Translations under genes and position numbers: made by a program
The notes under the pieces: model-generated
Databases searched by the model: none
Told to the model about the DNA's origin: nothing
The model's input: the letters and a program-made list of their open reading frames with translations, nothing else
Shown here: one piece after another, positions 6,701 to 58,335 of the stretch
Layout of the letters: every line of letters begins with the position of its first letter
How positions within the stretch are numbered: the first letter of the stretch is position 1
From: Podarcis gaigeae
Lineage: Eukaryota
Length of the DNA stretch: 64,000 nt
NCBI GenBank assembly: GCA_964106915.2
Contig: OZ066914.1
Direction: 5' to 3' (one strand)

Positions 6701-7820
6701 TCTACAAGTATTTCAACTACTTGCATAGATTATGTATTCACATGTATATATACCGGTATTTAGGAACCATTTGAAGTGCACAGTCTTAATATGGCCAGCA
6801 AGTTCCTCTCTCTTCCAGGTAGAAAATAGTCTACTTTGGAGTAGCTAAAAACATATACTAAACAATTAAGGGACTGGGAACAAGTAGAAGAGTGATGGCT
6901 CCCAACTCGGTTTATTATTGCACTTGCACCATTTGCCATGGTTCTTGTTCTCGAATGCTGCTAAAGCAGCATTTGAAACTAATTCATGCACAAGGTGGGA
7001 ATGAACAAATGTGGAATGACCTATGGGATCATACATCTCCGAGTTGTGGTTTGCATTCAGCTAGAATTACATTTAATAGTTTTTGAGATAATATTGTTTA
7101 TTTTGGAGTCACTTGCTCCAATACTGGTGAATATTCTTCTCAATTTTTTCTTTAAAGTGTGTGACAATCTGGACCGCTACAGCTCTGCCAGTCCTTTCCT
7201 TTGTATGGATCTCAGTTACATTACAGCTTTATTAAAAGAAGGATTTGGATTTGGAGACAGTACAGTTTTACAGGCAAGTAAAAATGGTTGAAAGAAGCCT
7301 TGGTTGAAGATTTTATTCCATTGACTAGTTGTTGGTACTGGTACTTTGTTCCATATGCTTTGATGAAATGGGGTGGGTGAATCTATATTTTACTTATTTT
7401 AGCATGGTACAGAATACTGTACTGCTAAAAGTCCTTGCAGCTCCAGGATATCAAATCCAAACTCTTCTATTTAAACTCATAACAGTAGGAAGTCACTGTT
7501 CATTAATAAGTAGTTGCATTAGTTAACTCCCAGTTTAAATTGACTTGAATGCTGCTTAGTGTCCAGTAGTCAGATATCCTTGTTTGAGATCTGACTTGCA
7601 ACTGTACTTTCTATCATATCCATCTGGAGTTATACTGGAAAATATTCTCAGCCTATACACTAAAAATGTACTCTGCCTAAAATGTCCTTATTGCAACAAG
7701 GGTAATTGATCTCTTACTTTTCTTCTTTTACAGCTGGCAAAGAAAGTGAACAACATAGAGACAAGCTGGGCTCTAGGTGCTACCTTTCACCTCCTGCAAT
7801 CTCTTGGACTCTCGCATTGA
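658..7820 (+). CDS. ENTPD5: ENTPD5 ectonucleoside triphosphate diphosphohydrolase 5, 3' part (last 7 coding exons; 5' exons lie upstream of the window)
   Basis: join(658..737,1086..1147,2427..2528,4743..4883,6241..6297,7158..7273,7734..7820). Phases are consistent and the translation contains [37 protein letters not shown] and IETSWALGA...LGLSH*, typical of the GDA1/CD39 family member ENTPD5. Confidence 0.96.
1086..1147 (+). CDS. ENTPD5: ENTPD5 coding exon ([20 protein letters not shown])
   Basis: tacag|CTA ... AAG|gtacag, 62 nt. Confidence 0.93.
1716..1851. mobile_element. Short hAT-like MITE (related copies near 2120-2263, 37022-37165, 47700-47800, 59595-59670)
   Basis: Fold-back structure CTCCAGATGTT..ACTACA.TTCCCAT / ATGGGAGTTGTAG..AACATCTGGAG. 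Confidence 0.72.
2427..2528 (+). CDS. ENTPD5: ENTPD5 coding exon ([33 protein letters not shown])
   Basis: ctttag|CAT ... AAG|gtaagt, 102 nt. Confidence 0.93.
3169..3524 (+). mobile_element. Sauria SINE, full length, 13-bp TSD
   Basis: (ACCTTT)n tail; TSD ATCCCTGCCACAA at 3156-3168 and 3525-3537. Confidence 0.92.
4743..4883 (+). CDS. ENTPD5: ENTPD5 coding exon ([46 protein letters not shown])
   Basis: gccag|GAG ... TAG|gtgaat, 141 nt. Confidence 0.94.
5539..5566. repeat. (TG)n microsatellite
   Basis: Seen directly in the sequence. Confidence 0.92.
6241..6297 (+). CDS. ENTPD5: ENTPD5 coding exon ([18 protein letters not shown])
   Basis: tttcag|ATT ... AAG|gtaaaa, 57 nt. Confidence 0.93.
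7158..7273 (+). CDS. ENTPD5: ENTPD5 coding exon ([38 protein letters not shown]), GC donor
   Basis: tttaaag|TGT ... CAG|gcaagt, 116 nt. Confidence 0.92.
7734..7820 (+). CDS. ENTPD5: ENTPD5 last coding exon ([28 protein letters not shown])
   Basis: ttttacag|CTG ... TGA; contains apyrase conserved region 5 (SWALG). Confidence 0.94.
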
Positions 7821-10610: not shown

Positions 10611-10640
10611 TCACTTGCTAGCAAAAGCCATGATCTGCTC
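10611..10640 (-). CDS. COQ6: COQ6 exon 12 coding part (EQIMAFASK*)
   Basis: tctttag|GAG ... TGA. Confidence 0.93.
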   Translation of the reverse strand, partial: EQIMAFASK

Positions 10641-13600
10641 CTAAAGAAAGAAGAAAGAACGTTATTTCTATTTCTGATGGAGCTCTATTACCCATTGCTG
10701 CTGGACAGGGCACAGAGGGGATCTAAAGCAAGATACTCTACTAAGATATAAGACAGCTCTACTCCAATGTCATGCACAAGCTAGCTTTTGTTTGCTTTCC
10801 ACCTCTTAAGTACATAATAAACTAACAGTGCAATCCTATAAATAACTACTCAGCTCTGCAGATACCTTCCCAGCTGAAAATGAGAGGCTACACCAGAAGC
10901 CTTTAGGGTAAGCTCTCATAAGCACCAAATGGCAACGCTTCTTACTTAACCAGTTGACACCTCCCTTCAGGATATGAAAGACTGCCATAGATGCTGTATT
11001 GTGGGTCTGTGTGGATAGTGTCAGCTTGTGGCGTTTTTGTTGCTCCAGACATGCTAGTACTGTTTAGCAAGCACACTTAATGGGGGAACTAGCATGGTTG
11101 GACCAAAGACAGCAATTATGATACCTTTTCTAAGCTGTCCTAGTAGGAAATAAGATGATCCCATTTCCTGCATTTGCGTGTTACCTTACCACCTGGCATA
11201 GGAAAGAATAAATTGGGCCAAACCTAATTACCGAAGTGCAAACTACAGGCTATTGGTTTGGTTTTAATTCAAATATCACTGTACCGTAAATGTTTCCCAT
11301 AGGTCCGTGCCATTTTGGACACATCCCATTGCACTTGGCAATTACAGCGTGTTCATACATTCGTCTCTACAAATACCTGGTGGGGCTCAAGGTGAGAGCT
11401 GGGGAATTGGATAGTTCCTATAAAGAAGGAACCATTCCTCCCTCTTGAACCATAAGAAGAGCAAATTGTTTAATTCCAGAAATTCACCTGAATTGGTACC
11501 CACCTTGGGTCTACCAAATGGAGAAAGGCAAGATATAAATAATAATCAAATATTTAGGCTCTAGATTTAGTGCCCTAGTCTAAATGCTGGTGACTACGCA
11601 ACCTTGCCATAGGAAGGAGACACATACTTAGGGAAGCTACACCCTAGTTGCAACACTCTTATTTGGGATTAAGCAAATTTCTTAATTTAATAAGCAACTT
11701 TAAAAAAAAACTTACTTTAATTGGAGGAACAGCATTAGTTGCTTGCAATCCCCATGTCCTTAGCAGTACAAAAGGAGCTATATTTGTAGAGTACAGCCTC
11801 TTTAATAAGTCTGTTGTAGCCAAGAGAGATAGGTTGTGCTTTTGCCGCTCTCTTTCATACTGTAGTAGATGCTTTAAAGAGCCTAGAACAGAAAGATTAT
11901 TCCAGAGTAAATTAACTGGTGATTCAGCTGCACCACAGGCACCTATGAGCTAGATTCCATCTACAAAGTTATTCAATCAGAGCTGACTCATAGTATGTTA
12001 AGAAGTTCATCCTGGGCAAGGATTTTTTTTGTCATATTGTGTCACATGTTGAATGGGCAGCAGCACAACAGTGGTACTATTGCATCCCAGATGGTGAATT
12101 ATGTTGCCTCTATAGTCAGGCATTCTGGAATTCCATGTAAATCACAGCAGGAAAACAGTAATATATTCATGACCCAAATAATACATAAGAGCGTGTTAAC
12201 ACCCTGGATTTCTACTAGCACATCTTGAATTAGCATTTTCTAAAACAACTTTTTGTAAATGAGAATAGGTAGCATGTTGCAGCTTTGTCCTTTCCTTATT
12301 AACTCCAATCTGGTGGCATCAGTTTCTTATTTTCAGAGAAATGCTTCTCCTAGTCTATAGGAGAACAAAATGTGGGGCACAAAATGTTCCTGCCACAAAT
12401 ACCCCAAAATGGGTAGTGTCATTCCTAAAGCTAGTAGCCAGAACTTTAAACACATCGTACATCAAGAAGTTGAATGGCAGAGACCCTAGAAGTGACATTT
12501 CGTATTACAGGTAACTCGCAACTTAGGCACATTTAACCTGTGTGCCTTCAGCTTTACCTGCATGGCAAAAAAATTAAAAGGGGGAGCGGGCATCCGGGAA
12601 AATAAACTTTGGCAATCCCACCCACCACTGCACCCAGTGTGTTTTGACTATCCCTGGAAAGTAACCCCCGCTTAAGCTGAAAGTCGCCTGTGCTATCAAT
12701 TCCTTCACAGTTTGAGATTCTTACCCAGGTCCTTCCCATTAAATGCTGCAGCGCTGAGAAGTTGCCTCAAGCAGGCTATGTCACCAAAGCCCATATTTAC
12801 ACCCTGACCTGCAAGAGGATGTACTCTGTGAGCTGCATCCCTAAAAGGAAAGGATAATGTCAGCTTATGCCAGTTACAAAGTCTGGTACTCCACAAGAAC
12901 CCTGCCAATTAGTATTGCCTGAGTTTCACTATATGGGACTCAAAAGCTCTTTTTTGTCCCTCACTAGAACCTTAAATGAACACCCCACTTGATACCTGCT
13001 GACTTCTCCCACAATTTGTATTCATCCCTGTTAACATTCTAGTGTCTAGGGACATGGGTTAAACTAGCTAGACTTGTGTTTTCTCCAGACACAATCCACC
13101 AATCCCTCCAAAATTAATGTTATACCCTCAAGATTCTCAACCTCTGGCACTAAAAACAGCATACTCCCATCAGTTAAGAATTCCTCTTCCCAGACCAAAT
13201 CTACCCTTATCACAGCATGAAAGTTCCTCAATGTGCAATTACCCAATAAGGGCCACACGGTGTTGGACATATTCTGTTGCATGCCCCAGTCCAAGAGGGA
13301 ACACAGCTCGGCTCTTTGGATCCACTTTTGCAACGCTTGGGGGCAGCTGACGGGCTGCAGTCCCCGATGGCATCAAGAGAGAGACAGCAGATCGGAACAT
13401 GGATCCAGCAGTATCAATGAAGTCAGAGTGATTTGCGTTGCTCCACTGAATAACAATAGATTTATTTATACAACACCCTAATATTACCAATAGATTACAA
13501 GAGTATGAGAGTCAGAACTGAAACTCTAATAAGTTTTAAGAAATCCTTATCTTAGAATAAAACAGTTTCTCTCCTAATCATCTGCCCACAAAATATCTTG

Positions 13601-16600
13601 CATACAGGACTCACAAGAAACCTATGGTGGGGTCCACAACCACCAGGGCCTCGGTTTTTCCAAATCAGCTCCAGGTGTTTCATGCACGAAATCACGAAAT
13701 AAAAGCAAGAGAACACAGAATTTGCATTTCAGATGGGAGGAGCATTCCACTATCTATCTAACCTTCAAAGAGGGAGATGGTGGCATGAGGAGGTATTCCA
13801 GCAAAGGATACCCTTGTGTAGGCCATAGCTTCTCATATTACCACTCTGCTATGGTAGCTTCTATATTGCCAATGTAATACAGTACAAGATTACCAATGAC
13901 CATGCACAATATTTCAAAGCTAAAGTATAAAATATGTAAACAATCACCACATATGGTGCAATATAAAGATTGACATTTGTATTACTGAAGACTGTGACAG
14001 AGTTTCAAAAACCAGTTCAGCACTTCACTTTCAATTTCAGTAGCCAAAAACATGAACTTCTGTATGGGATATATCTAAAGGAGAATTAATTTAGTTACTA
14101 TTTTCAGTGTCCCCTCACACTGTATAAATGACTAAATTTGGCAGTGTGCCAAAAGATGTGAGCTGAACTGTTACACAAAATAAATATTGTTTTCACAAGG
14201 TCTGGTTCTTAAGGGGGGGAAACTACTTGCTCACAGAGAGAGAAAGAAAGAAAGAAAGATCTGTTCCATCTCCAACTGATGCTAGAAATATATTCCCTCT
14301 ACACAGGAATTACACAACTTATTAGAAATAAAGGGTGACATTCAAATACTCAGAACACACCCACTAAAATTAATGAACATAACTAAATTAAGTTGATTTC
14401 CATTGGTCTACTCTAAGCAAAACTTAATTGAATACCACCCAAACTTTTTTTTTTGAATACCATCCTAACTTCTTGATTCTCATGCCTCTTGCTAGGAGAA
14501 CATAAATAAAAAGAGGAAGGTACTCACAAAAGCAGAATTGATAGAATCCACAAAACTTTCCTCATCCATTCTCTGAAGTTGGGATGCATGCTCATGTGAC
14601 GTGGACCAAACCAAAGAGCTGACAGTGTCAGAGAGCTGACCAGCATCAGGAATTAAAAACACAAAATATCCAACTATTACGTCTCTAAAAAATAACTTCC
14701 CCCACCCTAAACAAGTGCAAGGAGTTCATAACTTTAAGAGGAGGATTAATGAAGATAAAACAACATACAGTAACTGATTTTTTAAATATCAAACTAGCGC
14801 TTAAACAAAGAAAGGCAAAAGACAAATATAAAAAACAGGCAAGTCAAGTGTTACTAAGTTATTTACCGGGAGGAGAGCAATTGGTCCTGATGGAAGGAAT
14901 CTCTGCCATGCTACGTTGTTATCTGTTGCCTGCAGCACATGAAAACCAGAAGACAGATTCATATTATCAAGTTTCCATCACCTGTTTTGACTGTTCAGAA
15001 GATACAGCCCAAATGACCAATTTTCTGGGATCTGACCTCAGATAAGTGAAGGGTAGCAACTACAGCTGACTGTCCATATTGATACTGAATATTTTGAATA
15101 CCAGCTGCCTTCCGGACTATAGAGTTCTGCCCATCTGCACCAATCTGTAGACAAGAGAGATTAAAAGAACCCATTAACAGTTTTAATAAAAATTAATTCC
15201 TTCAAGTCTCATTATGAATAATCAGCCAGTAACTAGTTATAGAAACCCAAATATTCCCTCTGCATTTCAATATATAACTTATTTATGTATAAAAATGGCT
15301 TTTCCCTATACCCAGAATGCCATCATGTTTAATTACTTCCTAGTAAGACTGTTTAGAACCACAATGTTAATCCAAGTATAACCACACTGAACATGTTTTA
15401 CTACTAACCATTATAACCCTTTGTGCTGATTAAGTAGCATCACACGAGATTACAACCAAATCCAACAGAAGAACCTAGGAAGAGACAGTGCCTGACCAAA
15501 CAGAAGATGAAGGCTTACTTACCAACAGTTTGGTCTGTAGCCTGTGTCCATTTGCTAAATCAATTTGGATCCAAGGGCTTGAGTCAGAGGTTTCATAAGG
15601 AAGGGGCAAGGAGTAGCCAACTGCTCGACTCCTGTAAAGAACTTCAACGCGGTCTGATGGGGGCACAATATATTGATGTCACCAAATGAGTGAAGCAAAG
15701 AAGCAAAAAAATCCTAAACTACTCAGGCAGAACAGCTCACTAAGTTGCCGAATTCCTATCTTGAAGTACTTTTTTGGCTGTTGGTTAGGCACCTCCCAAT
15801 TTCTAAGCCAGGGGCAGAGACACTGTACCATATTGAAAAGGACCCAATTTCAAGAAAGCATAATCATTATTTATTTAATTTCTATACTTCTAAAATTGAC
15901 TGCTATAACCCCAAGTTATATGATGGACATAAATGTATCCCATTCTCACATGCCTCCACTCAACCCAAATCACAGAGAGTTTCAAATAAACCAAGATTGG
16001 AGAAAGTAGCTCCTACCTGAAACTGCATCCAGTTGTTTGGTTAGAGCAGACATGATAACATCATTCTCCACTACATAACCCATGTCTTCCAAGTTATCTT
16101 TATCAAAGATTATCATGGCCTCAGAACAAGCATCCCACACCTGTAGAGAAGAGGAACAGTATTAACAACAGCAAAGAGGATACAAGACGCAAATACAGAC
16201 ATTTTCTCCTTTATTGTGATGTACAAAATGCAAGGTAACCTCTGATAAATGGAGAATCAAGCCATACAATGACATTAGTATGAAAAAGAAAGGAAATACA
16301 AAAATTATAAACTTCTTCTTCAAGTGGTCCACTACTTATTATTTATATGCCATTCTTAAGAACTCAAAACACTTCACTTACGGTATATTTTTATTTAACA
16401 ATATTTTTATACTGCTTGTGAAACCTCTTTGAAGCTTATAAGAAACATTAAAATTATCAACAAATACAGTTAAAAACCAGAACATTCAAAAATAAAAATA
16501 AAAATTAACAGGAAAAGAGATTAAAAGATGTCAACATCTACATGTTGTCTGGATAGGCTTGCGTAAACAAAAATGTTTTAAGCAGGCACCAAAAACAGTA

Positions 16601-19600
16601 AAGGCACCTGCCTGGTATCAATAAGAAGAGTTCTAAAAGTAGATGCCCCAAAACATGAGTTCAGTTATATGTACACCTCCCACCTAATGGTTTCTGAGGA
16701 CAATGAGCAAGTGGCAAGGATATGGTACACTTCCTGGAGGCTAAGTTCAGGTAATTAACAAATAACTACTTAGCCTTAATCAACTGAACATGCACATGGA
16801 AGCAGAGGCAGAGGGTGCATGACTGAGTTATTCTCTTTTCACACTTTTGAGGTCTGTGCAAAGGGGGAACCCACCAGGAAATACTAATGTTCCTGTTGAG
16901 AGTATAGTTTACCCATCTCCCTGCAAAGAATATATATGAACCCTTTGCACAAGACTCTAGAAACAAAATTGAATGTCCTTGCTTGCATGGACTTCAGAAT
17001 TACATTACCACCCACAGACACAGTATATATGTTGCAGTACCAGGCACCTGCATCCGTCGAAATGGCTTGATTCTCATATTGCAAATATGATCCCAAGCAC
17101 CAAAACCAAGAAAAGAAAGAGAACGTTAAAGGAATTGTTCTGACACTCTGCAAACTTTTAATGGGGAACCCTCAGGACCAATTCAAATTCCCTCACTATT
17201 TCCATCTGGTTTCTTTCTACTCTCCCTTATTTGCTTGTGGTTTGACTGTGGCCCAACTGTCTAGTTGGGATGTGGAGGGTTGTAAGAAACAAAAGCAGTG
17301 AAGTCCCCAAGGATGGTGAAAGCAAGGACACTGTTATGGAAGCTTCAGGGCAAACCTTGGAGTAGCAATGAGTAACCTGTATTCCTCCAAATGCTTAGTT
17401 GTCTGTATAAACTATTTTAGGGAAATAAATAAGAAAAAGCACCTGTCACTTCACAGATGAACAGATTTGCAGTTATGAAGAGGAAAGTTCTAAGATGTTT
17501 GTCAGAAGCTGACTAAAGGAGTGGTGCACCATTTAATTATACTCGACAATTTCTAAGAAAATACCCCCAATGCACAGAGCCAAGCAATTATGAACAGAAA
17601 CAGTGACGTAATCTGGACATGTCCCAACAAGCAACTAACTAGGAAATCATAACACAAAGAAAATCCTGCTGAATCAGACCAAATGCTCATTTTGTCCAGA
17701 ATTTTGTTCACAAAGTGGCCACAAGGACATGTGGACAATAGTACCATCTTGTTTATGTTTTTTCAGCAACTGGTATTCAGATTCGTATAGCCTGATATTG
17801 ATGGGAATACATGACTAAGATAAAGGTAAAGGATCCCTGGACAGTTAGGTCCAGTCAAACAGATCTTGATAGTCTTAACCTCCATGAATTTGTCTGATTC
17901 CCTTTTAGAGTTGCCCAGCTTTTAAGCTGCCCTTTTAAAGCAGCTATCAATACATATTGTAGTAAGAAACTCCAGAATTTCACATCAACAGTCAATTTTA
18001 TTAGACGCTAGCTACAACACTAGAGGATTACTGAGGCCAGAAATATGACAGGCTGGTAACCATTTTTGACCTCCAAACAAAGAGCTCATTTGTGAACCTG
18101 AAAATTAATTTCAACAAGTGACCGTTACAAGTGCATTCTACTCCAGGTGACTCAAGCCAGTTCTACAATGTATGGGGTTTATTTTCCCCATCTATCCCAA
18201 GCCAGTATCCTATGCGGCACACAGGGTTTTATAGACTCACATCTGTAATTTCATATTCCAACATCAAAACACCATGCACGCATAGCTGGCAACCAAATAA
18301 CGGGTGAATGCTATACTTACTACTGAGAAGTGTGGCTGAACCAGGGGTGATAGCACTGACTCTATTACTGTAAGTCTTGGGCAACTGGTTAGATACTTTC
18401 TTTGGACGGGCTTCAAGTAGCAGAATTTTCTTATCAGACAGATGAACATCATGCCCTTATTAAAAGAAAAAGCCAGATGTTTAATAACATTTTAACCAAG
18501 ATTAATCAATAATTTAACATTCTGCAACAGGAGTTTACAAGAGATCTATTTTACATCTTCCCCTGAACATGCAGAATTGTTTAGCACTCTTGAACTCCAA
18601 AAAGTGAAAGCTAACAGTTCTAGAAGAAGAAGAAGAAGAAGAAGAAGAAGAAGAAGAAGAAGAAGAAGAAGAAGAAGAGTTTGGATTTGATATCCCGCCT
18701 TTCACTCCCTTTAAGGAGTCTCAAAGCGGCTAACATTCTCCTTTCCCTTCCTCCCCCACAACAAACACTGTGTGAGGTGAGTGGGGCTGAGAGACTTCAG
18801 AGAAGTGTGACTGGCCCAAGGTCACCCAGCAGCTGCATGTGGAGGAGCGGAGACGCGAACCCGGTTCCGCAGATTGGGAGTCTACCGCTCTTAACCACTA
18901 CACCACACTTTTCTCTTTTAGAGCCTAAATAAACTGTTGATTTAAAAAATAGCTACTAAAAGTTTTTTAAAAATAGCTACTAAAAGCTTTTAAAAAAATA
19001 GCTACTAAAAGCTTTTAAAAAATAGCTACTAAAAGCTTTTTAAAAATAGCTACTAAAAGCTTTTAAAAAATAGCTACTAAAAGATTACTTGAATCTTGTG
19101 GCACTTTAAAAACAAAAATTAAATTATAGTATAGGTTTTTGTAGAATACAGTTCACTTCATCCAATACATGATGTGTTATCTTGAGTTTCTGATATCTAA
19201 ACACATGGTTGCAGCAGAGGGGGGAGGGGGTTGTAAGCAGTGAAATCAAAGTAAAATTAAATGCAGAAATATGTCAGTGTACATATGAGTAAATATTCAC
19301 AAAAACTACTATGGGCAGCACTTGAAATGGACTCTGATGAAATGGACACTAGTTCTTTCAAGCTTATGCCACAATCAAAGTGTTAGTTTTCAGAGTGCCA
19401 CAAAACTCCTTGTTTTTACTGAATAAGCTAACACTGTTAACAACAAACTCCACCTGATCGGAATACAAGTTAATGCATTCTTCAATATTTGGACGCAGCC
19501 AGAATATTCCATGCACCAATAACCTTGGAATATTGTTACAGTTAAAGCCCTTTAGAGAGCTGTTCCTCCAGTCTATTCAGGTGCTGCCACTGGCTGCACT

Positions 19601-20080
19601 GAATGTTGGCGAAATACATGATTGGTATGAAACTCCTCAACACGACCGACATGAGATTTCAGTCCATATCACGAAGATTCGCCGCTTAAATGCTTTACTT
19701 GACGAAAACAATAACAATGTATATACATCAGCACAGCTGTAAACACTGTAGCCCACAACGCGTTTATTGCCTAAATTACGTCGGGAGGGCCAATGCTTCC
19801 CTATAGACCACCAACGAGCCCGAGGAGAGGAACTTGCAGGGATTAAAATTACGAATATGACCTGTGCAAGGAGGGTCTCTAGCCTGGTGATCTGCCTCCT
19901 ACCCAGTGCAGCAGCCATGGCGGTCCCGACCATGCCGCCACCCGATACCACCACGTCGTATACCGCCGTCGAGCCACTGGGTCTCACGAGGGAACGGGCA
20001 AGGCCGCTCCGGAGACAGAGGCCCTTCCCGAAAAGGGGCGCAACGCCCCGGCACGGTGACAGTCCCACCACGGCCGCCAT
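10611..20080 (-). CDS. COQ6: COQ6 ubiquinone biosynthesis monooxygenase (FAD-dependent), complete, 12 coding exons, 473 aa
   Basis: complement(join(10611..10640,11716..11882,12725..12840,13243..13445,14528..14635,14867..14929,15037..15144,15523..15653,16017..16140,17048..17106,18321..18455,19903..20080)) = 1422 nt. Motifs [12 protein letters not shown] (FAD), [37 protein letters not shown]. Confidence 0.96.
11716..11882 (-). CDS. COQ6: COQ6 exon 11 ([16 protein letters not shown]...[16 protein letters not shown])
   Basis: AG/GT boundaries, 167 nt. Confidence 0.94.
12725..12840 (-). CDS. COQ6: COQ6 exon 10 ([20 protein letters not shown]...FNGKDL)
   Basis: AG/GT boundaries, 116 nt. Confidence 0.95.
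13243..13445 (-). CDS. COQ6: COQ6 exon 9 ([14 protein letters not shown]...[20 protein letters not shown])
   Basis: AG/GT boundaries, 203 nt. Confidence 0.94.
14528..14635 (-). CDS. COQ6: COQ6 exon 8 ([17 protein letters not shown]...FVDSINSAF)
   Basis: AG/GT boundaries, 108 nt. Confidence 0.94.
14867..14929 (-). CDS. COQ6: COQ6 exon 7 ([21 protein letters not shown])
   Basis: AG/GT boundaries, 63 nt. Confidence 0.94.
15037..15144 (-). CDS. COQ6: COQ6 exon 6 ([16 protein letters not shown]...[10 protein letters not shown])
   Basis: AG/GT boundaries, 108 nt. Confidence 0.94.
15523..15653 (-). CDS. COQ6: COQ6 exon 5 ([13 protein letters not shown]...RLQTKLL)
   Basis: AG/GT boundaries, 131 nt. 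Confidence 0.93.
16017..16140 (-). CDS. COQ6: COQ6 exon 4 ([41 protein letters not shown])
   Basis: AG/GT boundaries, 124 nt. Confidence 0.94.
17048..17106 (-). CDS. COQ6: COQ6 exon 3 ([19 protein letters not shown]), preceded by TG rather than AG
   Basis: 59 nt, in frame with exons 2 and 4; acceptor ttcttttcttg|GTTTTGG; donor gtgcct. Confidence 0.88.
18321..18455 (-). CDS. COQ6: COQ6 exon 2 ([19 protein letters not shown]...[17 protein letters not shown])
   Basis: AG/GT boundaries, 135 nt. Confidence 0.93.
18622..18910 (-). mobile_element. tRNA-derived squamate SINE (Squam3-like) with (CTT)n tail
   Basis: Minus-strand head GTGTGGTGTAGTGGTTAAGAGCGG..GGTTCGCG (A/B boxes); tail is the (GAA)n run at 18623-18678. 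Confidence 0.78.
18623..18678. repeat. (GAA)n microsatellite
   Basis: About 18 perfect units. Confidence 0.95.
18941..19083. repeat. Minisatellite, six copies of a ~24-bp unit (TAGCTACTAAAAGCTTTTAAAAAA)
   Basis: TAGCTACTAAAAG recurs at 18950, 18974, 18999, 19023, 19047 and 19071. Confidence 0.92.
19903..20080 (-). CDS. COQ6: COQ6 exon 1 (MAAVVG...[19 protein letters not shown])
   Basis: aaaATGG start; donor gtagga; Arg/Ser-rich N-terminus resembling a mitochondrial transit peptide. Confidence 0.92.
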
Positions 20081-20427: not shown

Positions 20428-23400
20428 GTATGCGGGGCGGTTGTAAGCGGTCTGTTACCATGGCAACAGGCGGCGGTTGTTTGTTGCCATGGCTGCTCCT
20501 CGACGGCTTCACCTGAGCGGGAAATGGTGGTCGGGTATAATGGGGATGGAAGTGCGAGGGCATCCCTGGAGGAAACCGGTGGACGGCAGAGGGGAGCGGG
20601 CCAGACTTGTAACAGCAACAGTCACCACAAATAGCAAATAACATTTTTTTAAAATAAAAATATATTATTTTACAAGGAATAACCTCTCTCGTGCAACGGC
20701 GGGATCCCATTGCATGTGAACCCAAAGTTCAAGGGGTCTTCTTTACTCCCAGGTTAACTGAGCACAGGCTTGTTGGGGGGGGGGGAATGCTGGTTTTATT
20801 ATTATTATTTATTATTTGTACCCCGCCCATCTGGCTGGGTTTCCCCAGCCACTCTGGGCGGCTTCCAACAAGACCAAAAATACACTAAAATGTTACACAT
20901 TAAAAACTTCCCTGAATAGGGCTGCCTTCAGATGTCTTCTGAATGTCAGGTAGTTGTTTATCTCTTTGACATCTGACGGGAGGGCGTTCCACAGGGCGGG
21001 CGCCACTACCGAGAAGGCCCTCTGCCTGGTTCCCTGTAGTTTTGCTTCTCGCAATGAGGGAACCACCAGAAGGCCCTCAGTGCTGGACCTCAGCGTCCGG
21101 GCAGAACGATGGGGGTGGAGACGCTCCTTCAGGTATACAAAGTGCAAAGTGGTATACAGTATTTCGAATGGAAATGCATTTTCAAAATAGTTTTTTCTTC
21201 TGTGTTTGAAACCTTTGTTTTGTTGTTCTGATTTGCCTAGGTGTTTCCAATTAAAGCACAGTCTCCAGACTTGCAACTGGGTAGTAATATTTCTCTGCCC
21301 GATGGCGGTGAGCTGCTAGATTTCCTCCAGTCAGAGGAACAAATAGTAGGTGCCTCGAGTTCAGGAGAGGATTTTTACGACTCGCTTCAGGCCCTCAAAA
21401 GGAAAAACAGACAATGTTTGTTAGAACTAGGTCTGATATACCAGGTACAGTTGGAAAACCACCAGGAACCACCAGAGAACAAGGAGCTGGAAGACTTTTT
21501 CCAGGAAAATGGAAGATTGACATTGCCATCAAAGTTCCATGAAGCTTTGAGGTGAGATGCAAGAGAATCTATTGAAATCCGTACATTGATTCTCCTACAC
21601 AGGCATAGAGTTTTTACAGTAGTCTTGTGTGCTCCTGTTGGACAACTGATCAAATATAATAATGAAACAGATCTTAGAATATCATTATTCCTAAACTATC
21701 TCCTTTCATTTATTCAGAGTTCTCAAATATAACCTTTCTTCTGATTTATTTGCCAATGATAACATTTTTTACCATATCCTCAGATCTGGCAACCTAAGAA
21801 GGTTCAATTCATTGACTAACATCACTGCTGATAACCCAAAAGATGAGCAAAATCATCATTCGTTTCTTCAGTCCTTTTCAAGATCAAAGAGTGCTTCAGC
21901 TACATGGATCTCCCCTATCACCGTCCCTCAACCCTTCAATATGACACTTCGAGAAGCTTGCAGAAAATTGAAGTCCCATGCATTGTTTGAAATTGAATCA
22001 GCTGAGTACAAAAGACAAAGCCTAGAAGAAGCTGAATGCCAGAAACAGTTCAGAGCACAACCTGTGCCTGCTCACATCTATCTGCCACTCTACCAAGAAA
22101 TAATGGAAAAGAATGAAATTCGCAGACAAGTGGAAACACAAAAGAGAAGAGAACTACTCCTTTCAATGCAAAAACCCTTCAGTTTTCAGGAAAAAGAAGA
22201 AAAACGAAAGGACGTCATCAGACAGAAGATGCTAGAAGTTTTGACTCCAGTTGAGAAATCAGTACCAAAAGTTAGGAAGAAGATCCCCAAGTCCACCTAT
22301 GAACCAATGTTTGGGGATAAACTCAAAGGTAAAACAGCTTTTAATGCACTGTCAATAATACCTAATGGTGGTATGAAGGTATCTTCTTCATCTGCTATAG
22401 GAGACATTCCAGTTAGTAGATTCATTGTCTGTCATACCAGTACAAAAGAAATAAAAGAAAATAGGCCTTTTATCCTGCCATACCACAAAACACATTTCTT
22501 ATTTCAGAGTGAGTAGGACCAATCTGTGGAATTAGTAAAAACAGGACTCAGGGAAGGTGATCAACAATCACATAAAAATTAAGAGGAAACTTCTCTGATG
22601 CTACAGATTTGCAATGGTTGATGAATTGGGCATCCTCAGGGCCTTGGCCTCTGCCCCACCTCATAAACCTCTGGAGCTGATTAGCCTGAAAAATGGTGAT
22701 GGCTAGGAACTGTATCCTACTCTTTAAGGATGCCAACCTGTACCATCCCTTTGGGGAATTCTTCTTAATAGTAAAATGTATCCAGAAATGAATTGCTCCT
22801 CTTGGCTTGTTCCTGAAGCAGGGCTATGCAAATTTCATTTTATTATTATTATTATTATTATTTTTTAAATTTCTATACACTCCTTGATCTGAGGATCACT
22901 GGGCAGTTTACAATATAGAAACACAAAAACACATAACACAGTAACATACAGAAACTATGCCTCCCCCCCCCCACTGTTTAAAAGGCAATGGATTGTTTAA
23001 TTAGCCAAAGGTTTGGGAGACTTCATGTTGATCATTTTCCTTTCTAGAATACACAAGTTTTTGAAAAAGAATAGAAAAAGAAATAGAAATAGAAAAAGAA
23101 TGAGATTATTAAGTTGTGCTGCATTATATATCCCATAGTTTTTTATTTGGAAAAGATACGTGTTAGGCGGTTTCAAATGTTCTGGATTTTCAGTTATTGC
23201 TTTTGCTTTAACGCTTGGCTCAACCATTAGCCTCTCTTGTTATTAGTGTCATTAACACTTTTCTTCTGTTGCATTAGCCAGATTTACATACCCAGCCCGT
23301 TCATTACTGTTCATCACTGTTGCTTTTACTCCCCAGAAGCTGAACTCTTACGAAAAATCCGTATTCAGATGAGAGCCAAGGATTTATTGGAAAGTTCCTG

Positions 23401-25712
23401 GGCTCCTATTGAGCTTGGCAAGAGAAAAAAAGGATCCCAAATTACCTCTACAAACAGGGAGAAAAAACTGAGCTTTCTGCAGGATAACTTCAGTTTTAAA
23501 CCAAGAATCAATACATCTGTGCCTGACTTTGAAGGACTTTACTGGGCATTCCAGAGAGAAGCTTTAAGCAAACGAGAAATCAAAGAAACAACTCATAATA
23601 AACCATTCAGACTTAGAACATCTAATCTCTGTTGCAAACATCAAGTGCCTAATCCGGGGATGATGGTAAGAGGGATTGCTTTTATCTTTGTACTGCTTTG
23701 TATTCCTTTACATACAAATCACTCATGAGTGCAAAACACCAAATATACTTTACCATCCGTTTAACTCAGTGTTGAGATAGTTTTAGATGAAGGTTGGCTT
23801 TCTTTGGAACAAACGTCACGGAATAAAACAAGAAGAGTCTCAATGGCTCCAACTTATGCTTGAAGTCTTAACTGTAGTAGTACTTCTATTGAAGTGCATT
23901 TCAAATAGTAAATAACAACTTTATTACTATTAATATTAAATAGCAAATCACAGTGTCTGAACTAAATTTTGAAGGAAGGTAATTTGAAAAACAGAGAGAG
24001 TCAAAATAAAAACTGACAAATTACCAAGCCCAGACAACATCCACCCAAGAGTTCTTAAAGCACGTAAATGTAAAATTGAGGACAAAAATATGTAAATTGT
24101 CTCTCAGATCAGCCTCCATACCCAAGGACTGGAAAGTGGCCAGTGTAACCCTAATTGTTTTTAAAGGAATCCTGGAAAATAAATGCTGTTTAGTTTAACA
24201 TCTGATCTTTCCCAGGAAAACTGGTGGAAAGTATTGTTAAAGATTAGATCGGCAAAGCTTGTTCTTTTGTATTCTTGCTTAAGCAGATCCAGCATTACTT
24301 CTGCAAAGGCAAGTCCTGTCTCACCAACCAATTAGAATTCTTTGAGAGTGTCAGCAACCATATAGATAGAGGTTGACACAGTGTATTCAGACTTAAAAAA
24401 AAGCTTTCAACAAAGTACCTCACCCAAGACTCTTGTTCATCTTAGCAGTCATGGAGTAAAAAGAGATTTTCTTCTAGATCAGGAAATGGTTATGTATGTA
24501 GCAGGATAACATCCTGTTGTGTACAGGATGTGTTGCTTTCCACATCAGCAGCTCTTTGCCCCACTTACCTGTCAGCATAATGTTTTCCAAATGTAAAAAT
24601 GTGAACCTCATAAGAGACAAGCATTTGCAGGTTGATAATAACGAAGAGCAAATTACTGGTATATATGTGCATGCATGCATACAAACATACATACATACAT
24701 ACAAAGAGAGTCTAGCTGCAGCTAAGCACTGTATAAAAAGGTGTGTTTAAAAAAAACACCAATATTAAATATTCTTACTTTCAGGATTTTCAACAACCTT
24801 CCAGGGCTCCAATACAAAGGAGTCGGTCTTTGAATTACCTTTCATCCCTCTCCTCCAACACACTTCCAGTATATATCACAGATGCAGTGAGAAAGAGACA
24901 GTCTGCTATTAAGTGAGTAACTTACTCATTTAATTAAAGTATGAATAAGTGCAAAGGTGGAACATCCTGATCCAGACAATGCCTGCAAAACCTTGTAATA
25001 TAACCCTGCCTGCCCCGCATGGCAGGTGGAGGCCACCTATACTTTTGGATACCCCCCTGAACAAAATTCCCCAAAGCCTGCTAAAATTCAGAGTTAAGAG
25101 AGTACCACATATACTTTGAACAGTATAAGTTGTATAAGTTTGTATAAGTTTTGTTTTGGAAACCTTAGTGATTTTATTTTGAAAAGATCATATCCCATTA
25201 TCTGCATATATGTTTGTAGACGCCTTCAAGAGGATAAAAAATACAAGGAAAATGAAGGAGCTCGTTGGGCAGAGTTGCAGAGAAAGAGAGGTCAAGCTAT
25301 GCATAAGTCTCTGAATTGCCGAGCAAAAGCTTTGGATCCCCATAGAAGCTTGGAGGAAACACACAGAGAAAAACTGAAGCAAAACTGGTCAGTATGCTAA
25401 TTGGCTTTGGTAGCGTACTATTGAAGCAAAATCATTTCAGTTGGAATTACTTATAGCTCAGTATAAGAAATGGGTTTGGGCTTCAAGTGTTCATGGCCAA
25501 CAGACAGCAGTCGTATTATTTATTTACACTTCATGCTTATCTCAGCACTATCCTTAGATATAATTGGTAACAGAGCCCCATAATTTGAAAAATAATATAT
25601 TGTAATAGAAAAGGGATTCAGATTTGGATCTAAAAGGCTTTCCCAAAAAAGCAACATCTCATTACTGTGCCCCTCTTCTCTGCCTAACTGGGTTTTTAAA
25701 AATAAAAGTCTT

Positions 25713-32185: not shown

Positions 32186-35100
32186 CTGCAAATCAAACAG
32201 GAGACTAAGTTGTGCTTTATAAAATGTTCATTGGAGATTATTTTCTCAAGCAACCCGATCTTCAGGCAAAAAATGAAGTATGCATTGTGTGGATGTATTA
32301 GACTAGGGCAAATATAAGAAACAGTAGCTAAATCAGCACTCAGGAAAACATATACAGTATCAGAAACCAATATAAAAGTATTATTATTGCATTCCACCCT
32401 TCCTATTAAAACTATGTGTTGGAACTGCAGTAAATTATCCCGTTTAAGACTATCCTGATAGAAAGATATCCCCTCCCAACTTAGCTTCTGTAAACATTTC
32501 ATTGCTAATAGAAATATTTTTCTCACCTTCCTTTACACCAATAATTGATTCTGTGTCTGGCAACTGCAAGGATTCTACACCAAGGCTGGGAGGTGAGCTC
32601 ATGGACACCAGATTCTTACTGTGCTCTTCAGATTCTTCCAACAAACTACTGCCCATCAACGATTCTGTTGCAAAAACAAAACACCAAGTTGAGGAACAAC
32701 AGCATCAGTGTCTACTATCACACAGCGAGGGATTTCTGCTTCACAAATCTGAAGAATGTGGAGAATTGTTTTCTCACTCTTCCTTATCCAATATTTCTTC
32801 TTCATGACCTGTATTTTCAGGAAGAGAGTTTGACTTTGTAGAGTATATTTCGAGATGTGGGCATACACATCTGAAAAGCACAACTTTACTCACACAGATC
32901 AATTTTATAACTGTTTTTCAAAGCTGGTAAATAGTTAATGCTTTGTGATCAAACACTCTTAGCCTCTCTGTTCCTACAGTCTCTTCATGTGATATATTTC
33001 ACATCCTCAGAAACAGCCGCATTTCTGTCACTATCTCATGCTAACACTTCTATGGCAGAACAGATTCTCTTTCTCAACTTGACCCTTCTCATCACTGTTT
33101 GAAAGATCCAATCAAACATTCCCATTCTACTCGGTTCCTACCTGTTTGTTCATGCTGTCTGTTGCTATCTGTTCCAACTCTGGAATGATGTTTCTTCATG
33201 TGTACATTCCTACTACCACTCTGAGAAAATGTCTTCCCACAGATTTGACACTGGTGGGGCTTTACTCCTATAAACAATATACAATAATTGCTAGAGCAGA
33301 GAATTAAATATCCATTTTCAATGCTTAAGTAGTTTTCATTTCTCTTGAATTCAGACACCAAAGGCTTAGCTTTAGAAAGGGGCTATCAAGTTCACAGTCA
33401 AATTTTGTCAGGAAAATTTAGAGTCTCAGGCCTGTATGTACAAGAAGCCTTTGACCTAGAGATTGTAAGATCTCACTTTGTCACGCCCCTAATTGTATAT
33501 ACTAGGCAAGTTGCAGTTTTTAGCCTACACCTTTGAAGTTATGAGGCTCAAGAAGAGAAAAGGGCAAGACAGCATAAAAAGCAAAGGGGGAACCACATTA
33601 GTAATTGTTCAGTAAGACCTAGGGAATAATGTTCTGCTGTCTTCAAGACAGACGTCGTCTGTTGTATGGGTATATCTCAAGGAATAAAGTCCCCTTACCT
33701 GAATGGACAACTAGGTGTTTCCGAAGGCTGGAGTATTCAGCAAAGGAGCGACCACAGCCCTGAGCCTCACACAAGAAGGGCTTTTCCCCTGCATTGAAGC
33801 ATTTGCTTCAGTTAATTAAAAAAGGCACTTGAATTGCATATGCCCTCACATGCAAGGATCCACTTCTTTCTATTAAGTTGCAGTTTCTCAAATTCAAACA
33901 CCTTTCATTGTTTACATGAATTGAAGCTTTGAAGCTTTCTACTTGGAGAGTGAAAACACAATTTCTCCAAGACTGGAAGTCTCAGAAATTTAATATAATA
34001 ACCACCAACATGGTTTGCTATTATATAACCTTTTGACCACCTAAAGGAGGTGGGGGAAAACTTTGGCCTGGTTCACATGACCCGCTAAGCCAAACCTTGA
34101 CTTATTGAGACCATACACAGAGGAGCTCATATCCACGTTGCTCCTCCCTGGTCCTCTTTTCCGCTGTGCCAAGCCAGGTTTGGCTTAGTGGGTCATCTGA
34201 ATCAGCTTTCTCCTCCCTATCTCCCCCCTAGCTGTAACATAGCCGGCATTTGGCCCTCATAAACAGCGTCCGGGTGGAAATCGCTGCAGTGTTCAGGAAA
34301 ATCTGGATATATGGCAACCCATGTCGGAAGTGTAGATTTTGCCTAATTTCATTAAAAATACCTCAAAGCTCAACAACTTTGGCAACCCTAAATAAATACT
34401 TCATAACAGGCATAAAGGCCTCAGAGAGGCAGCAGCTGCCTAGTCAGTGCCATGCTCATAATCTGGCTGACAGAAATGCAGAGAAACTTCTTTAACACTT
34501 GAATACTGGAACAAAAGAAGAATTCGAAAAAAGGGGAATGGTACACACCAGTATGAATCCGCAGGTGATTCTTCAGGTTCCCAGCTGTCGTGAACTGCTT
34601 CCCACAACCTAGCTCGGTGCAGATGAATGGTTTCTCACCATTGTGCGTTCTCATGTGCACCTTCAGCCTCTGCAGGACATAGAAGCTTTTCCCGCAATCT
34701 TTTGCTGGACAAATGAAGGAACGGTCATTCCTGGAAAACAACATCACTTTCATGGCACTATTATACATGCTGCTGTAATCAAGTTTTCCTCTGCTGGTGC
34801 TCTGGCTTTCATTAATGTGGTGTTGTATGCATTTTTGTTTCAGTTCAAAATGAAGAGGCTGAAAAGTGACATGGCCAGTTACTGGCCCCACCTGAAGTAA
34901 CAGTTAAAGTAAAATGAAGAGGTTGCATTTTCCTTGCCTTACACTGTATAAATAATTTTAATAAACCAGATATTCTCATTTAAAAGTTTCGGTTACATAT
35001 AACATACACAAAAAAGCAGTTTTGTTTGGGCCAGTTGAAAATCACAAGCCACTCCCAGGCAGTTAAAACACACAAACAGTGTTTTAAAAACCACACTGAG

Positions 35101-41314: not shown

Positions 41315-42515
41315 ATTTTCAACAAATTTTATCATAACAAACAAAACAAGACAACACAATAACAAACAATAAACAATATAAAACATAAAAATCAAACAAA
41401 AATATATAAGTTCAACTCTTAATTTCATGTAACTTACTTTCCCAACTTCCTCACACCTCCCTTTTCTGTATTCCAATTTCCAATTTAGTTTCAGCAAATT
41501 CTTCCTCTATTTTGACTGATTTTAATATTGCTTAATTTATTTTAAATTAACCATTACCGTTGCTATCCACTTATCTTCTAATCCCCCATCATTGATTAAT
41601 TTTGCTATATTTCTTTACTTGTTACTTATAAAACATCTTTGCACATTCCTTTCAACTTTGTCACCAATGCCACACTATCTCTATATCCTGCATCACTTTA
41701 ACATTCAAATAATTTACAATGCTTTTGCAGATAATCTTTAAATTTCTTCCAATCTTCTTCTGTTTGTTCTTCTCCCATGTCTCGGATTCTGACAGTCATT
41801 TCTGCCAGTTCGATGTAGTCTATCGGTTGCATCTGCCATTCTTCCAAGGTGGGCAAATCTTGTGTCTTCCAATACTTTGCGATGAGTATTCTTACTGCTG
41901 TTGTTGCATACATGAAAAAGGTTCTATCCTTCTTTAACACCCTCTGGCCAACAATGCCCAAGAGAAAGGCCTCTGGTTTCTTAAGAAAGGTATACTTAAA
42001 TACCTTTTTCAGTTCATTATAGATCATTTCCCAGAAAGCCTTAACCTTTGAGCACGTCCACCAGAGGTGAAAGAATGTTCCCTCAGTTTCCTTACATTTC
42101 CAACACTTATTGTCAGGCAAATGATATATCTTTGCAAGCTTGACTGGTGTCATGTACCACCTATAAATCATTTTCATAATATTTTCTTTCAAAGCATTAC
42201 ATGCCGTGAATTTCATACCAGTGGTACATAACCGTTCCCAGTAAGCAAACATAATGTTATAACCAATGTCTTGTGCCCACTTAATCATAGCTGATTTGAC
42301 CGTTTCATCCTGAGTATTCCACTTTAACAGCAAGTTGTACATTCTTGACAATACCTTAGTTTTAGGTTTTAACAATTCCGTTTCTAATTTCGATTTTTCC
42401 ACCTGGAAACCTATTTTTTTATCCATATTAAAGACCTCTCTGATTTGGTAATAGTGTAGCCAATCTCGCACTTTATCTTTTAGTTTCTCAAAACTCTGCA
42501 ATCTCCATGTGTCTC
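41315..42515 (-). mobile_element. 5'-truncated L1-clade LINE (ORF2 C-terminus plus 3'UTR), 18-bp TSD
   Basis: Open ORF2-like frame with the CCHC knuckle CWKCKETEGTFFHLWWTC; TSD CCCAAGCAGTATGTCTTT at 41297-41314 and 42516-42533. Confidence 0.9.
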
Positions 42516-42533
42516 CCCAAGCAGTATGTCTTT

Positions 42534-42856
42534 GAAGGTAAAGGGACCCCTGACCATTAGGTCCAGTCGTGGCCGACTCTGGGGTTGCGGCGCTCATCTC
42601 ACTTTATTGGCCAAGGGAGCTGGCGTACAGCTTCCGGGTCATGTGGCCAGCATGACTAAGCCGCTTCTGGCAAACCAGAGCAGCGCACGGAAACACCGTT
42701 TACCTTCCTGCCAGAGCGGTACCTATTTATCTACTTGCACTTTGACGTCCTTTCAAACTGCTAGGTTGGCAGGAGCAGGGACCGAGCAACGGGAGCTCAC
42801 CCCATCACGGGGATTCGAACCGCTGAGCTTCTGATCAGCAAGTCCTAGGCTCTGTG
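42534..42856 (-). mobile_element. Sauria SINE, slightly 5'-truncated
   Basis: Reverse-strand copy closely matching 3169..3524 but lacking the first ~30 nt. Confidence 0.9.
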
Positions 42857-48479: not shown

Positions 48480-49620
48480 AAGATGCAGAAAGACCGAGAG
48501 TCTCCCTCGCCGCGCGGAGGACTTTGTGCAGGCGCTCCTAGGCGGCAGCGCCTTCCGTGGTTCTTCTAAGCGTCCCCGCGGCCTCGCAAAGGAAAAAAAT
48601 CCAGGTCGGCTATCGCGCCGCCTTCCCCCTCCTCTGCGAAACTTTCGTTAGGTGGCATCCATCAGCCACGCCAGCCCTTCTCCGCGCGCTGAGTCATGAG
48701 AGCAACAGATCCCCGCCACCCCCGCCGACTGAGCGCACTTTGGTACGCTCCGCCTCCGCCTCTCCCTCCCTCTCGCCGCGTTGGTGCGTTCCATCCCGCC
48801 CCGACAACCCAACCCAATGGTACATCTCGCCCTCCCCCTGCGGCTGCGAGCAGTGGTTGGCTCCGGCAGCGGCGGCGGCAGCAGCAGCAGAGTCCCGTCC
48901 GGTCCCGCCCCGCCTCCCTCCGCCTTGTCATTGATGTTGTTGTTTCTGTCGCAGGAGCCGGAGGGGAGGCCGAGGCCGGGCTCGGGGCTGCGGCCGCCGG
49001 CGGCTGGGCCGGCCATGTCGTCGGTGTGTGGGGGGCCGGTGGGCGCCGGCTCCCTGCCCAGCGAGCTGGTGGTCCACATCTTCTCGTTCCTGGCCGCCCC
49101 GGACCGGCTCCGGGCCTCGGCCGCCTGCTCGCACTGGCGAGAGTGCCTCTTCTACCCGGCCCTGTGGCCCCGGCTGCGCCTCAGCCTGCGCGTCTGCCCG
49201 GCCGAGCGCCCGCGCCTCGACTTCCTCATGCGCAAGTGCGGCTGGTTCGTGCGCGAGCTCCGCGTCCAGTTCGCCGCCGACAACTACCCCAGCGGAGGAG
49301 CCGGAGGCGGCGGCGGAGCAGGAGCCGGAGGAGGAGGAGGCGCCAGCGGGGTGTGCGAGGAAGCGGCGGCCGCGGCGGAGGGAGAAGCACAGCTCTGCCC
49401 TCGCTGGCTGGAGCTGCTGAGGACCTACCTGGAGCTCGTACTCTGCGTGCTTAGCAGCGTCCGCAACAACAGGTAGGACGGCGTGGTGGGAGGCCAGCCA
49501 GCGTTAACTAACATTCACACACACACGTACTAACACCCATGCAAACACACGCCGAGCGGGAGGGAGAGTTGCAAAGCCTCCTTAGCTACTTAGCTGGGAA
49601 GCAGGAGCTCTCTCTTTCAA
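48480..49620 (+). promoter_or_regulatory. FBXO33: CpG island over FBXO33 promoter and exon 1
   Basis: Very GC/CpG-rich; multiple CCGCCC (Sp1) boxes; TGAGTCA (AP-1) at 48690-48696. Confidence 0.85.
48934..49472 (+). CDS. FBXO33: FBXO33 exon 1 (F-box, Gly/Ala-rich loop)
   Basis: In ORF 48781..49476; donor CAG|gtagga; start codon choice uncertain (48817, 48934 or 49015). Confidence 0.88.

Positions 49621-58303: not shown

Positions 58304-58335
<32 letters not shown>

Follow-up and report, generated by a model that had tools for sequence, protein, structure and literature searches.

A TG in place of the expected AG at the end of COQ6 intron 2 in Podarcis gaigeae, tentatively read as a recent splice allele

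A complete COQ6 gene with one noncanonical intron end

In the 64,000-nucleotide stretch of Podarcis gaigeae contig OZ066914.1 that we analyzed (the window), intron 2 of COQ6 ends in TG (17107..17108, minus strand; plus-strand position 17108 is A in the assembly) where the near-universal AG is expected, and no nearby AG can replace this TG and restore the conserved protein. The reading toward which we lean, with somewhat less than even confidence, is that this animal may carry a recent and damaging AG-to-TG splice allele, and we rank it above a constitutive TG acceptor. The weights that we attach to the readings are judgements from rough base rates and were not computed.

The gene lies on the minus strand, where 12 exons between 20080 and 10611 join into a 473-aa frame that is free of internal stops and shares 470 of 473 residues with a Podarcis raffonei model (P0023), itself a match to the Pfam family FAD_binding_3 at 71.7 bits. 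Its product is the full-length orthologous protein, an FAD-dependent CoQ monooxygenase, and exon 2 used as a query returned 18 lepidosaur COQ6 proteins, the nearest of them from Podarcis muralis (98%). Ten of the 11 introns are GT-AG, intron 2 being the exception. Beyond the TG we found no lesion across 1,422 coding bases and the 21 other splice dinucleotides, which agrees with the sequence-only reading of the window, in which the other 11 exons were described as intact. When the whole genome assembly (1.51 Gb in 211 contigs) was searched for further copies, exons 2 and 9 each matched once, and thus no spare copy was found for either exon tested.

Coding exon 1 (19903..20080) has lost five codons in frame within the N-terminal leader, a gap that is shared with P0023 and absent from the models of P. 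lilfordi, P. muralis, Zootoca, and Lacerta. Exon 2 (18321..18455; 135 nt) ends in phase 1 and is followed by intron 2 (17107..18320; 1,214 nt, GT...TG in the assembly) and the 59-nt exon 3 (17048..17106). The donor of intron 3, GTGCCT (17042..17047), matches the consensus poorly at +3 to +5. Exons 4 (16017..16140) and 5 (15523..15653) are placed by the gene model and by alignments from a related lizard, and exons 6 to 12 (10611..15144), with GT-AG introns throughout and a terminal stop, by the gene model (exons 6 to 9, 15144-15037, 14929-14867, 14635-14528, and 13445-13243; exons 10 to 12, 12840-12725, 11882-11716, and 10640-10611; all on the minus strand). A (TTC)n microsatellite occupies 18620-18680 in intron 1.

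Context of the TG and the alternatives to it

Apart from its last two letters, intron 2 has the features of an ordinary U2-type intron. As the sequence-only reading had stated, its donor is GTAAGT (18315..18320), and the end of the intron reads CTTTAAC, G, 15 pyrimidines, and TG. The branch-point-like CTTTAAC (17125..17131), identified by motif match only, puts the predicted branch A at 17126 (-20), and the unbroken 15-nt pyrimidine tract (17109..17123) is the second longest among the 11 introns; counted over the 20 letters before the TG, 17 are pyrimidines, the joint highest value in the gene. A TG with a comparably good tract and branch motif occurs at 4 of 602 other intronic TGs of COQ6, so that the TG of intron 2 sits in an acceptor-like context beyond chance. 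The junction itself, TTG|G, has a pyrimidine at -3 and a purine at +1, and the first 34 nt of exon 3 are free of AG, the longest such start among the exons that follow the 11 introns.

The alternatives that the sequence-only reading had dismissed failed in our analysis as well. Upstream AGs that would lengthen exon 3 by 33, 39, or 41 nt (17140..17149) all lie 5' of the branch-point motif and are unproductive, the first two remaining in frame and meeting stops at codons 109 and 111 and the third shifting the frame; within 200 nt, all 17 upstream AGs lead to a premature stop by codon 152. Inside exon 3, the first AGs end at +34 and +41 (17066..17074), and with the normal donor both shift the frame. 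Skipping exon 3 leads to a stop at codon 111, while skipping exons 3 and 4 together keeps the frame and yields 412 aa. Sliding the junction gives two other cuts, AA..GT and TA..GG, neither of them canonical. Among 340 GT/GC-AG pairs tested near the junction, 10 kept the frame, each at the cost of 34 or 41 nt of conserved exon 3, and a canonical pair was therefore rejected as a substitute junction.

One AG close to the TG has been lost in this lineage. Codon 114 is CAA here (17079..17081; Asn) and CAG (Ser) in the related lizard, the difference being the letter at 17079 (T>C in that relative), and the lost AG stood 28 nt into exon 3. S114N is one of two derived amino-acid changes (with I147V) relative to P0023 and the P. 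muralis model; from column variability in 15 species we estimate a chance of about 1.4% that one of two changes would fall on column 114, a calculation made post hoc. The column toggles among squamates, with 23 Ser, 22 Asn, and 1 Lys in 46 models.

The exon 2-exon 3 junction in a related lizard

Of 24 listed sequencing runs, four gave an alignment over 15400-18600, all from a relative about 95 to 98% alike (organism E), two consisting of contigs (X9 and X15) and two of RNA reads (X23 and X24). In its RNA, positions 17104 and 18319 are joined with a slack of two letters, equivalent to a 17106/18321 junction and a skip of 1,214 nt, in 9 reads with 7 different starts in X23, 13 reads with 12 starts in X24, and one X15 contig. 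Reads covering 17079 numbered 9 and 16, and as controls the exon 3-exon 4 joint had 8 and 11 reads and the exon 4-exon 5 joint 20 and 18. Among joints with at least 3 reads per run, none led to 17139, 17145, 17147, 17072, or 17065 and none skipped exon 3; the upper 95% bound for any one rival junction is 13 to 32%. The count of junctions to 17106 against 17139 that the sequence-only reading had proposed thus came, in organism E, to 22 reads against none at that threshold. These reads set the exon 3 boundary at 17106, in keeping with the earlier description of the exon as intact and in frame, and they fix the position of the acceptor and not the use of TG.

No indel was found near the site in organism E, either in the indel table or in an ungapped contig over 17080-17949, and contigs of both X9 and X15 span it. 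With no difference in length, the acceptor of organism E must be TG as well or differ from it by substitution of one letter. Differences of the A>T type number 7 in each of X9 and X15 over the compared stretch, at least one of them located. Over the 3' part of intron 2, 19 of 870 letters differ between the window and organism E, with no gaps, a smaller share than in intron 3 (46 of 949; P = 0.002) but not significantly smaller than in intron 4 (31 of 917; P = 0.15).

Intron 3 and the greater part of intron 2 are spanned by contigs of X15, whose RNA origin is a guess, at a depth of 7 to 13, against 35 to 76 on exons, and no X15 contig covers intron 4; X24 contributes a few reads to intron 3, in its 5' part. 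Splicing around exon 3 is possibly slow, or the introns retained (16141-18320). High-copy repeat fragments lie at 16470-16600 in intron 3 and at 17754-17960 in intron 2, where the summed depth of X9 contigs runs into the thousands.

Orthologous models and the age of the TG

Of 53 lepidosaur models, which include several isoforms per species, 46 have the exon 2-exon 3 junction in register; the remaining 7 do not contain this junction at all, and no model shows an indel there. The P. lilfordi model P0027 carries the exact junction. PASA updates of gene models typically keep to consensus splice ends. For P. lilfordi, the annotation used EVM together with PASA updates, according to the available text of its description (PMC10214862), and EVM, as presented in the available part of its own (PMC2395244), admits only GT or GC donors and AG acceptors. 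Since P0027 comes from an AG-only pipeline, P. lilfordi likely has AG and the TG would be young; the ancestral letter was presumably A on the coding strand. Together with the exon 1 gap shared with P. raffonei, this makes it likely that the TG occurs in only a part of one genus, or in a single animal.

Several lineages show signs that exon 3 is weakly defined. The Varanus RefSeq isoform X2 (P0054) joins a shifted-frame exon 2 to exon 4, models of P. muralis and Pogona take a Met of exon 3 or 4 as their start, and a Sceloporus model (P0009) reads on into intron 2. In the window, the peptide obtained by reading through into this intron starts SKYSIH, which is also the tail of that 135-aa Sceloporus model (18320-18280, minus strand), and the first 17 or so bases of the intron may be conserved between lacertids and iguanians, past the donor consensus. 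In humans, the inactive COQ6 isoform b departs in its start site and in how exon 3 is spliced (Doimo et al. 2014, available text of PMC3898990); the labile exon is the same in the two cases, although the human one, as described there, is exon skipping and not a non-AG acceptor. UniRef labels three COQ6 isoforms (P0035, P0039, and P0051, from two snakes and Pogona) "L-amino-acid oxidase," which looks like a misannotation.

A possible recent damaging splice allele

According to the reading that we tentatively prefer, a single recent point change would have turned the AG of an ordinary U2-type acceptor into TG. The TG allele would probably be on one chromosome, and we infer that it is carried heterozygously, so that the homologous chromosome would supply an undamaged AG copy to cover for it. 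Because exon 3 looks weakly defined and is followed by the donor GTGCCT, the likely recourse of an allele deprived of its AG would be exon skipping or intron retention, neither of them productive, and transcripts of the TG allele would be expected mostly to skip exon 3, to retain intron 2, or to use the AG at +34. For each of these outcomes a premature stop is predicted among the first 125 codons, followed by nonsense-mediated decay. The strong tract and close branch point would make some leaky use of the TG possible.

This reading accords with a gene that is otherwise intact and single copy and with a junction that is in register in most orthologous models, P. lilfordi included. It also accords with what is known of TG acceptors in humans, where 37 introns with a TG acceptor were reported, each as an alternative to an AG no more than 28 nt away and none, in the available text, constitutive (Szafranski et al. 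2007, PMC2374985); in COQ6 the distance to the closest AG is 33 nt on the upstream side and 34 nt on the downstream side. In the AG>TG mutants cited there, a neighboring AG was always activated, as far as the available text describes them (PMC2374985). Rare variants of canonical splice sites are common in human genomes: in the accessible portion of one study, 168 were found in 112 people, with a frameshift or decay outcome for 74% and normal splicing only for 17.9% (PMC11144818). Like these, the COQ6 case is one change in an acceptor dinucleotide of an otherwise intact gene with a predicted frameshift and decay; they are human, whereas this is a lizard seen in one assembly.

The sequence-only reading had proposed a working TG, a null allele, or a consensus error, and those remain the right field of candidates, but a homozygous null is unlikely. 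A total lack of CoQ synthesis is described as lethal and patients with COQ6 disease are said always to retain a hypomorphic allele, both in the available text of PMC3898990; a podocyte knockout was fatal in mice, whereas Coq3 heterozygotes were normal (available text of PMC8614664). Given that lethality and the normal heterozygous mice, a hidden heterozygous allele would by analogy be viable.

Several observations weigh against a recent damaging allele. Organism E may have the TG as well and use it with high efficiency. Through S114N the lineage has lost the closest AG on the downstream side of the TG, which a private allele would not predict. The share of human canonical variants with normal splicing only is not negligible (18% in round figures), and the argument for AG in P. 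lilfordi is indirect, being drawn from the annotation pipeline. Should the TG turn out to be an allele private to this animal, or a slip of the assembly, its significance would be no more than that of a warning, in that annotation tools would call COQ6 broken here.

A possible working TG acceptor without a partner AG

Next in rank, and on balance unlikely, is that the TG, though it lacks a partner AG, is a fixed and functional acceptor, either in this species or across a group of wall lizards. With its strong tract and its branch point at -20, the intron would enter the first step of splicing without any AG, and as no AG follows for 54 nt past the branch point, the second step would join at the well-spaced TG; the loss of the CAG at +28 would have taken away the sole close competitor.

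The features of the TTG|G site agree well with such an acceptor. Like the human U2-type TG-AG tandems (GNAS intron 3, RYK intron 7, and ACAD9 intron 10), it has a U2 donor, a pyrimidine before the TG, a purine after it, and a branch motif and tract upstream of the TG, the tract here being the joint strongest of 11 introns and the AG-free exon start the longest. Unlike the tandems, COQ6 has no AG within 28 nt and every AG option wrecks its protein, and whereas TG use in the tandems was seen in transcripts, the COQ6 TG is read from the genome alone, with the junction taken from organism E. On the distances of 33 and 34 nt, against the published 28-nt limit, identity with a TG-AG tandem was rejected. 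Organism E, with its CAG at +28 in exon 3, does have an AG within the tandem limit; by the tandem rule the loss of that AG should hurt use of the TG and not help it. The derived loss of the CAG, a point in favor of a working TG, is weakened by this rule and by the free toggling of Ser and Asn at column 114.

The rule that a TG needs an AG is not absolute, since constitutive and lineage-restricted noncanonical sites are on record. In the available text of Parada et al. (2014), 24% of 184 human noncanonical sites are called constitutive, and sites restricted to a lineage and derived from canonical ones are described for BANP (GT-GG) and ACTR10 (AT-AG) (PMC4176328). As this reading would have it for COQ6, in both genes a canonical site became noncanonical in one lineage and is still spliced there; the BANP case is an alternative site and that of ACTR10 a donor change, and both have transcript support.

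The essential, intact, single-copy state of COQ6 also favors a working TG, as does the low divergence of the 3' part of intron 2 from organism E relative to intron 3, although the comparison with intron 4 is not significant. All 22 listed junction reads of organism E join at 17106, which would be direct proof if organism E has the TG; as they stand, they come from organism E and none from this species. The likely AG of P. lilfordi and the human survey, with none of its 37 TG introns constitutive, are the remaining points against it.

Our literature search found no report of a GT-TG intron or a non-AG acceptor in COQ6, though supplements outside its reach could list the gene. COQ6 does not appear in Table 1 of PMC2374985, whose supplement could still list it, in the supplements of PMC4176328 that were searched (all but file 1), or in the main text of the TOGA2 preprint. 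If the TG is fixed and used, this would be a vertebrate U2 intron with TG as its only productive acceptor. It would contradict the finding, in the available text of PMC2374985, that TG never acts as a sole acceptor, and the close relatives that bear AG would offer a natural AG/TG pair for testing AG-independent choice of 3' splice sites.

Other explanations

A single-base consensus error, with a normal TAG in the animal, is improbable to a slightly greater degree. One letter would give back a textbook acceptor, the site adjoins a low-complexity T-rich tract, and the relative has a normal junction; against this, the error would have to be a substitution, as there is no difference in length to organism E, and homopolymer indels are the more usual assembly error. 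The rest of the coding and splice-site sequence is free of lesions, and the assembly is highly contiguous, which also count against an error. On the other side, earlier human screens discarded many non-AG candidates as sequence errors or single-nucleotide polymorphisms, according to the available text of PMC2374985.

The sequence-only reading had further suggested that the upstream AG acts as a switch of COQ6 dosage, the +33 site sending transcripts to nonsense-mediated decay, and this we now consider very improbable. The +33 site is a CAG leading to a stop at codon 109, and the exon 3 region is a splicing node, as human isoform b and the skip in Varanus P0054 illustrate. But the +33 AG is situated 5' of the sole branch-point motif, with no pyrimidine tract to serve it, its distance exceeds the 28-nt limit given in the available text of PMC2374985, and no such joint is listed for the two RNA runs of organism E, where 2 or fewer reads per run could hide and decay would deplete them. 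A small probability, of the same low order and slightly larger, is left to any other explanation.

Least probable of all is a U12-type intron with a relaxed 3' end or a dying pseudogene. The U12-type branch-site consensus, TTCCTTAAC, lies near the 3' end of such introns, and its best match here has 2 mismatches and lies about 20 nt upstream of the end of intron 2, but the donor differs at 4 of 8 positions from the U12-type donor consensus RTATCCTT, on which ground the U12 type was rejected; a pseudogene was rejected with both a second lesion and a second copy absent.

Neighboring features in the window

Pfam matches place a gene of the FAM161A/B family at 21241-25400 (plus strand), head to head with COQ6, a C2H2 zinc-finger gene at 34424-34903 (minus strand), and an F-box gene at 48733-63965 (plus strand). 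Among the neighbors we presume there to be ZNF410, FBXO33, and ENTPD5, the last around 6983-7288. A stop-free frame of 301 codons at 41701-42603 (minus strand) has no Pfam match, and we take it to resemble the C-terminal part of a LINE ORF2.
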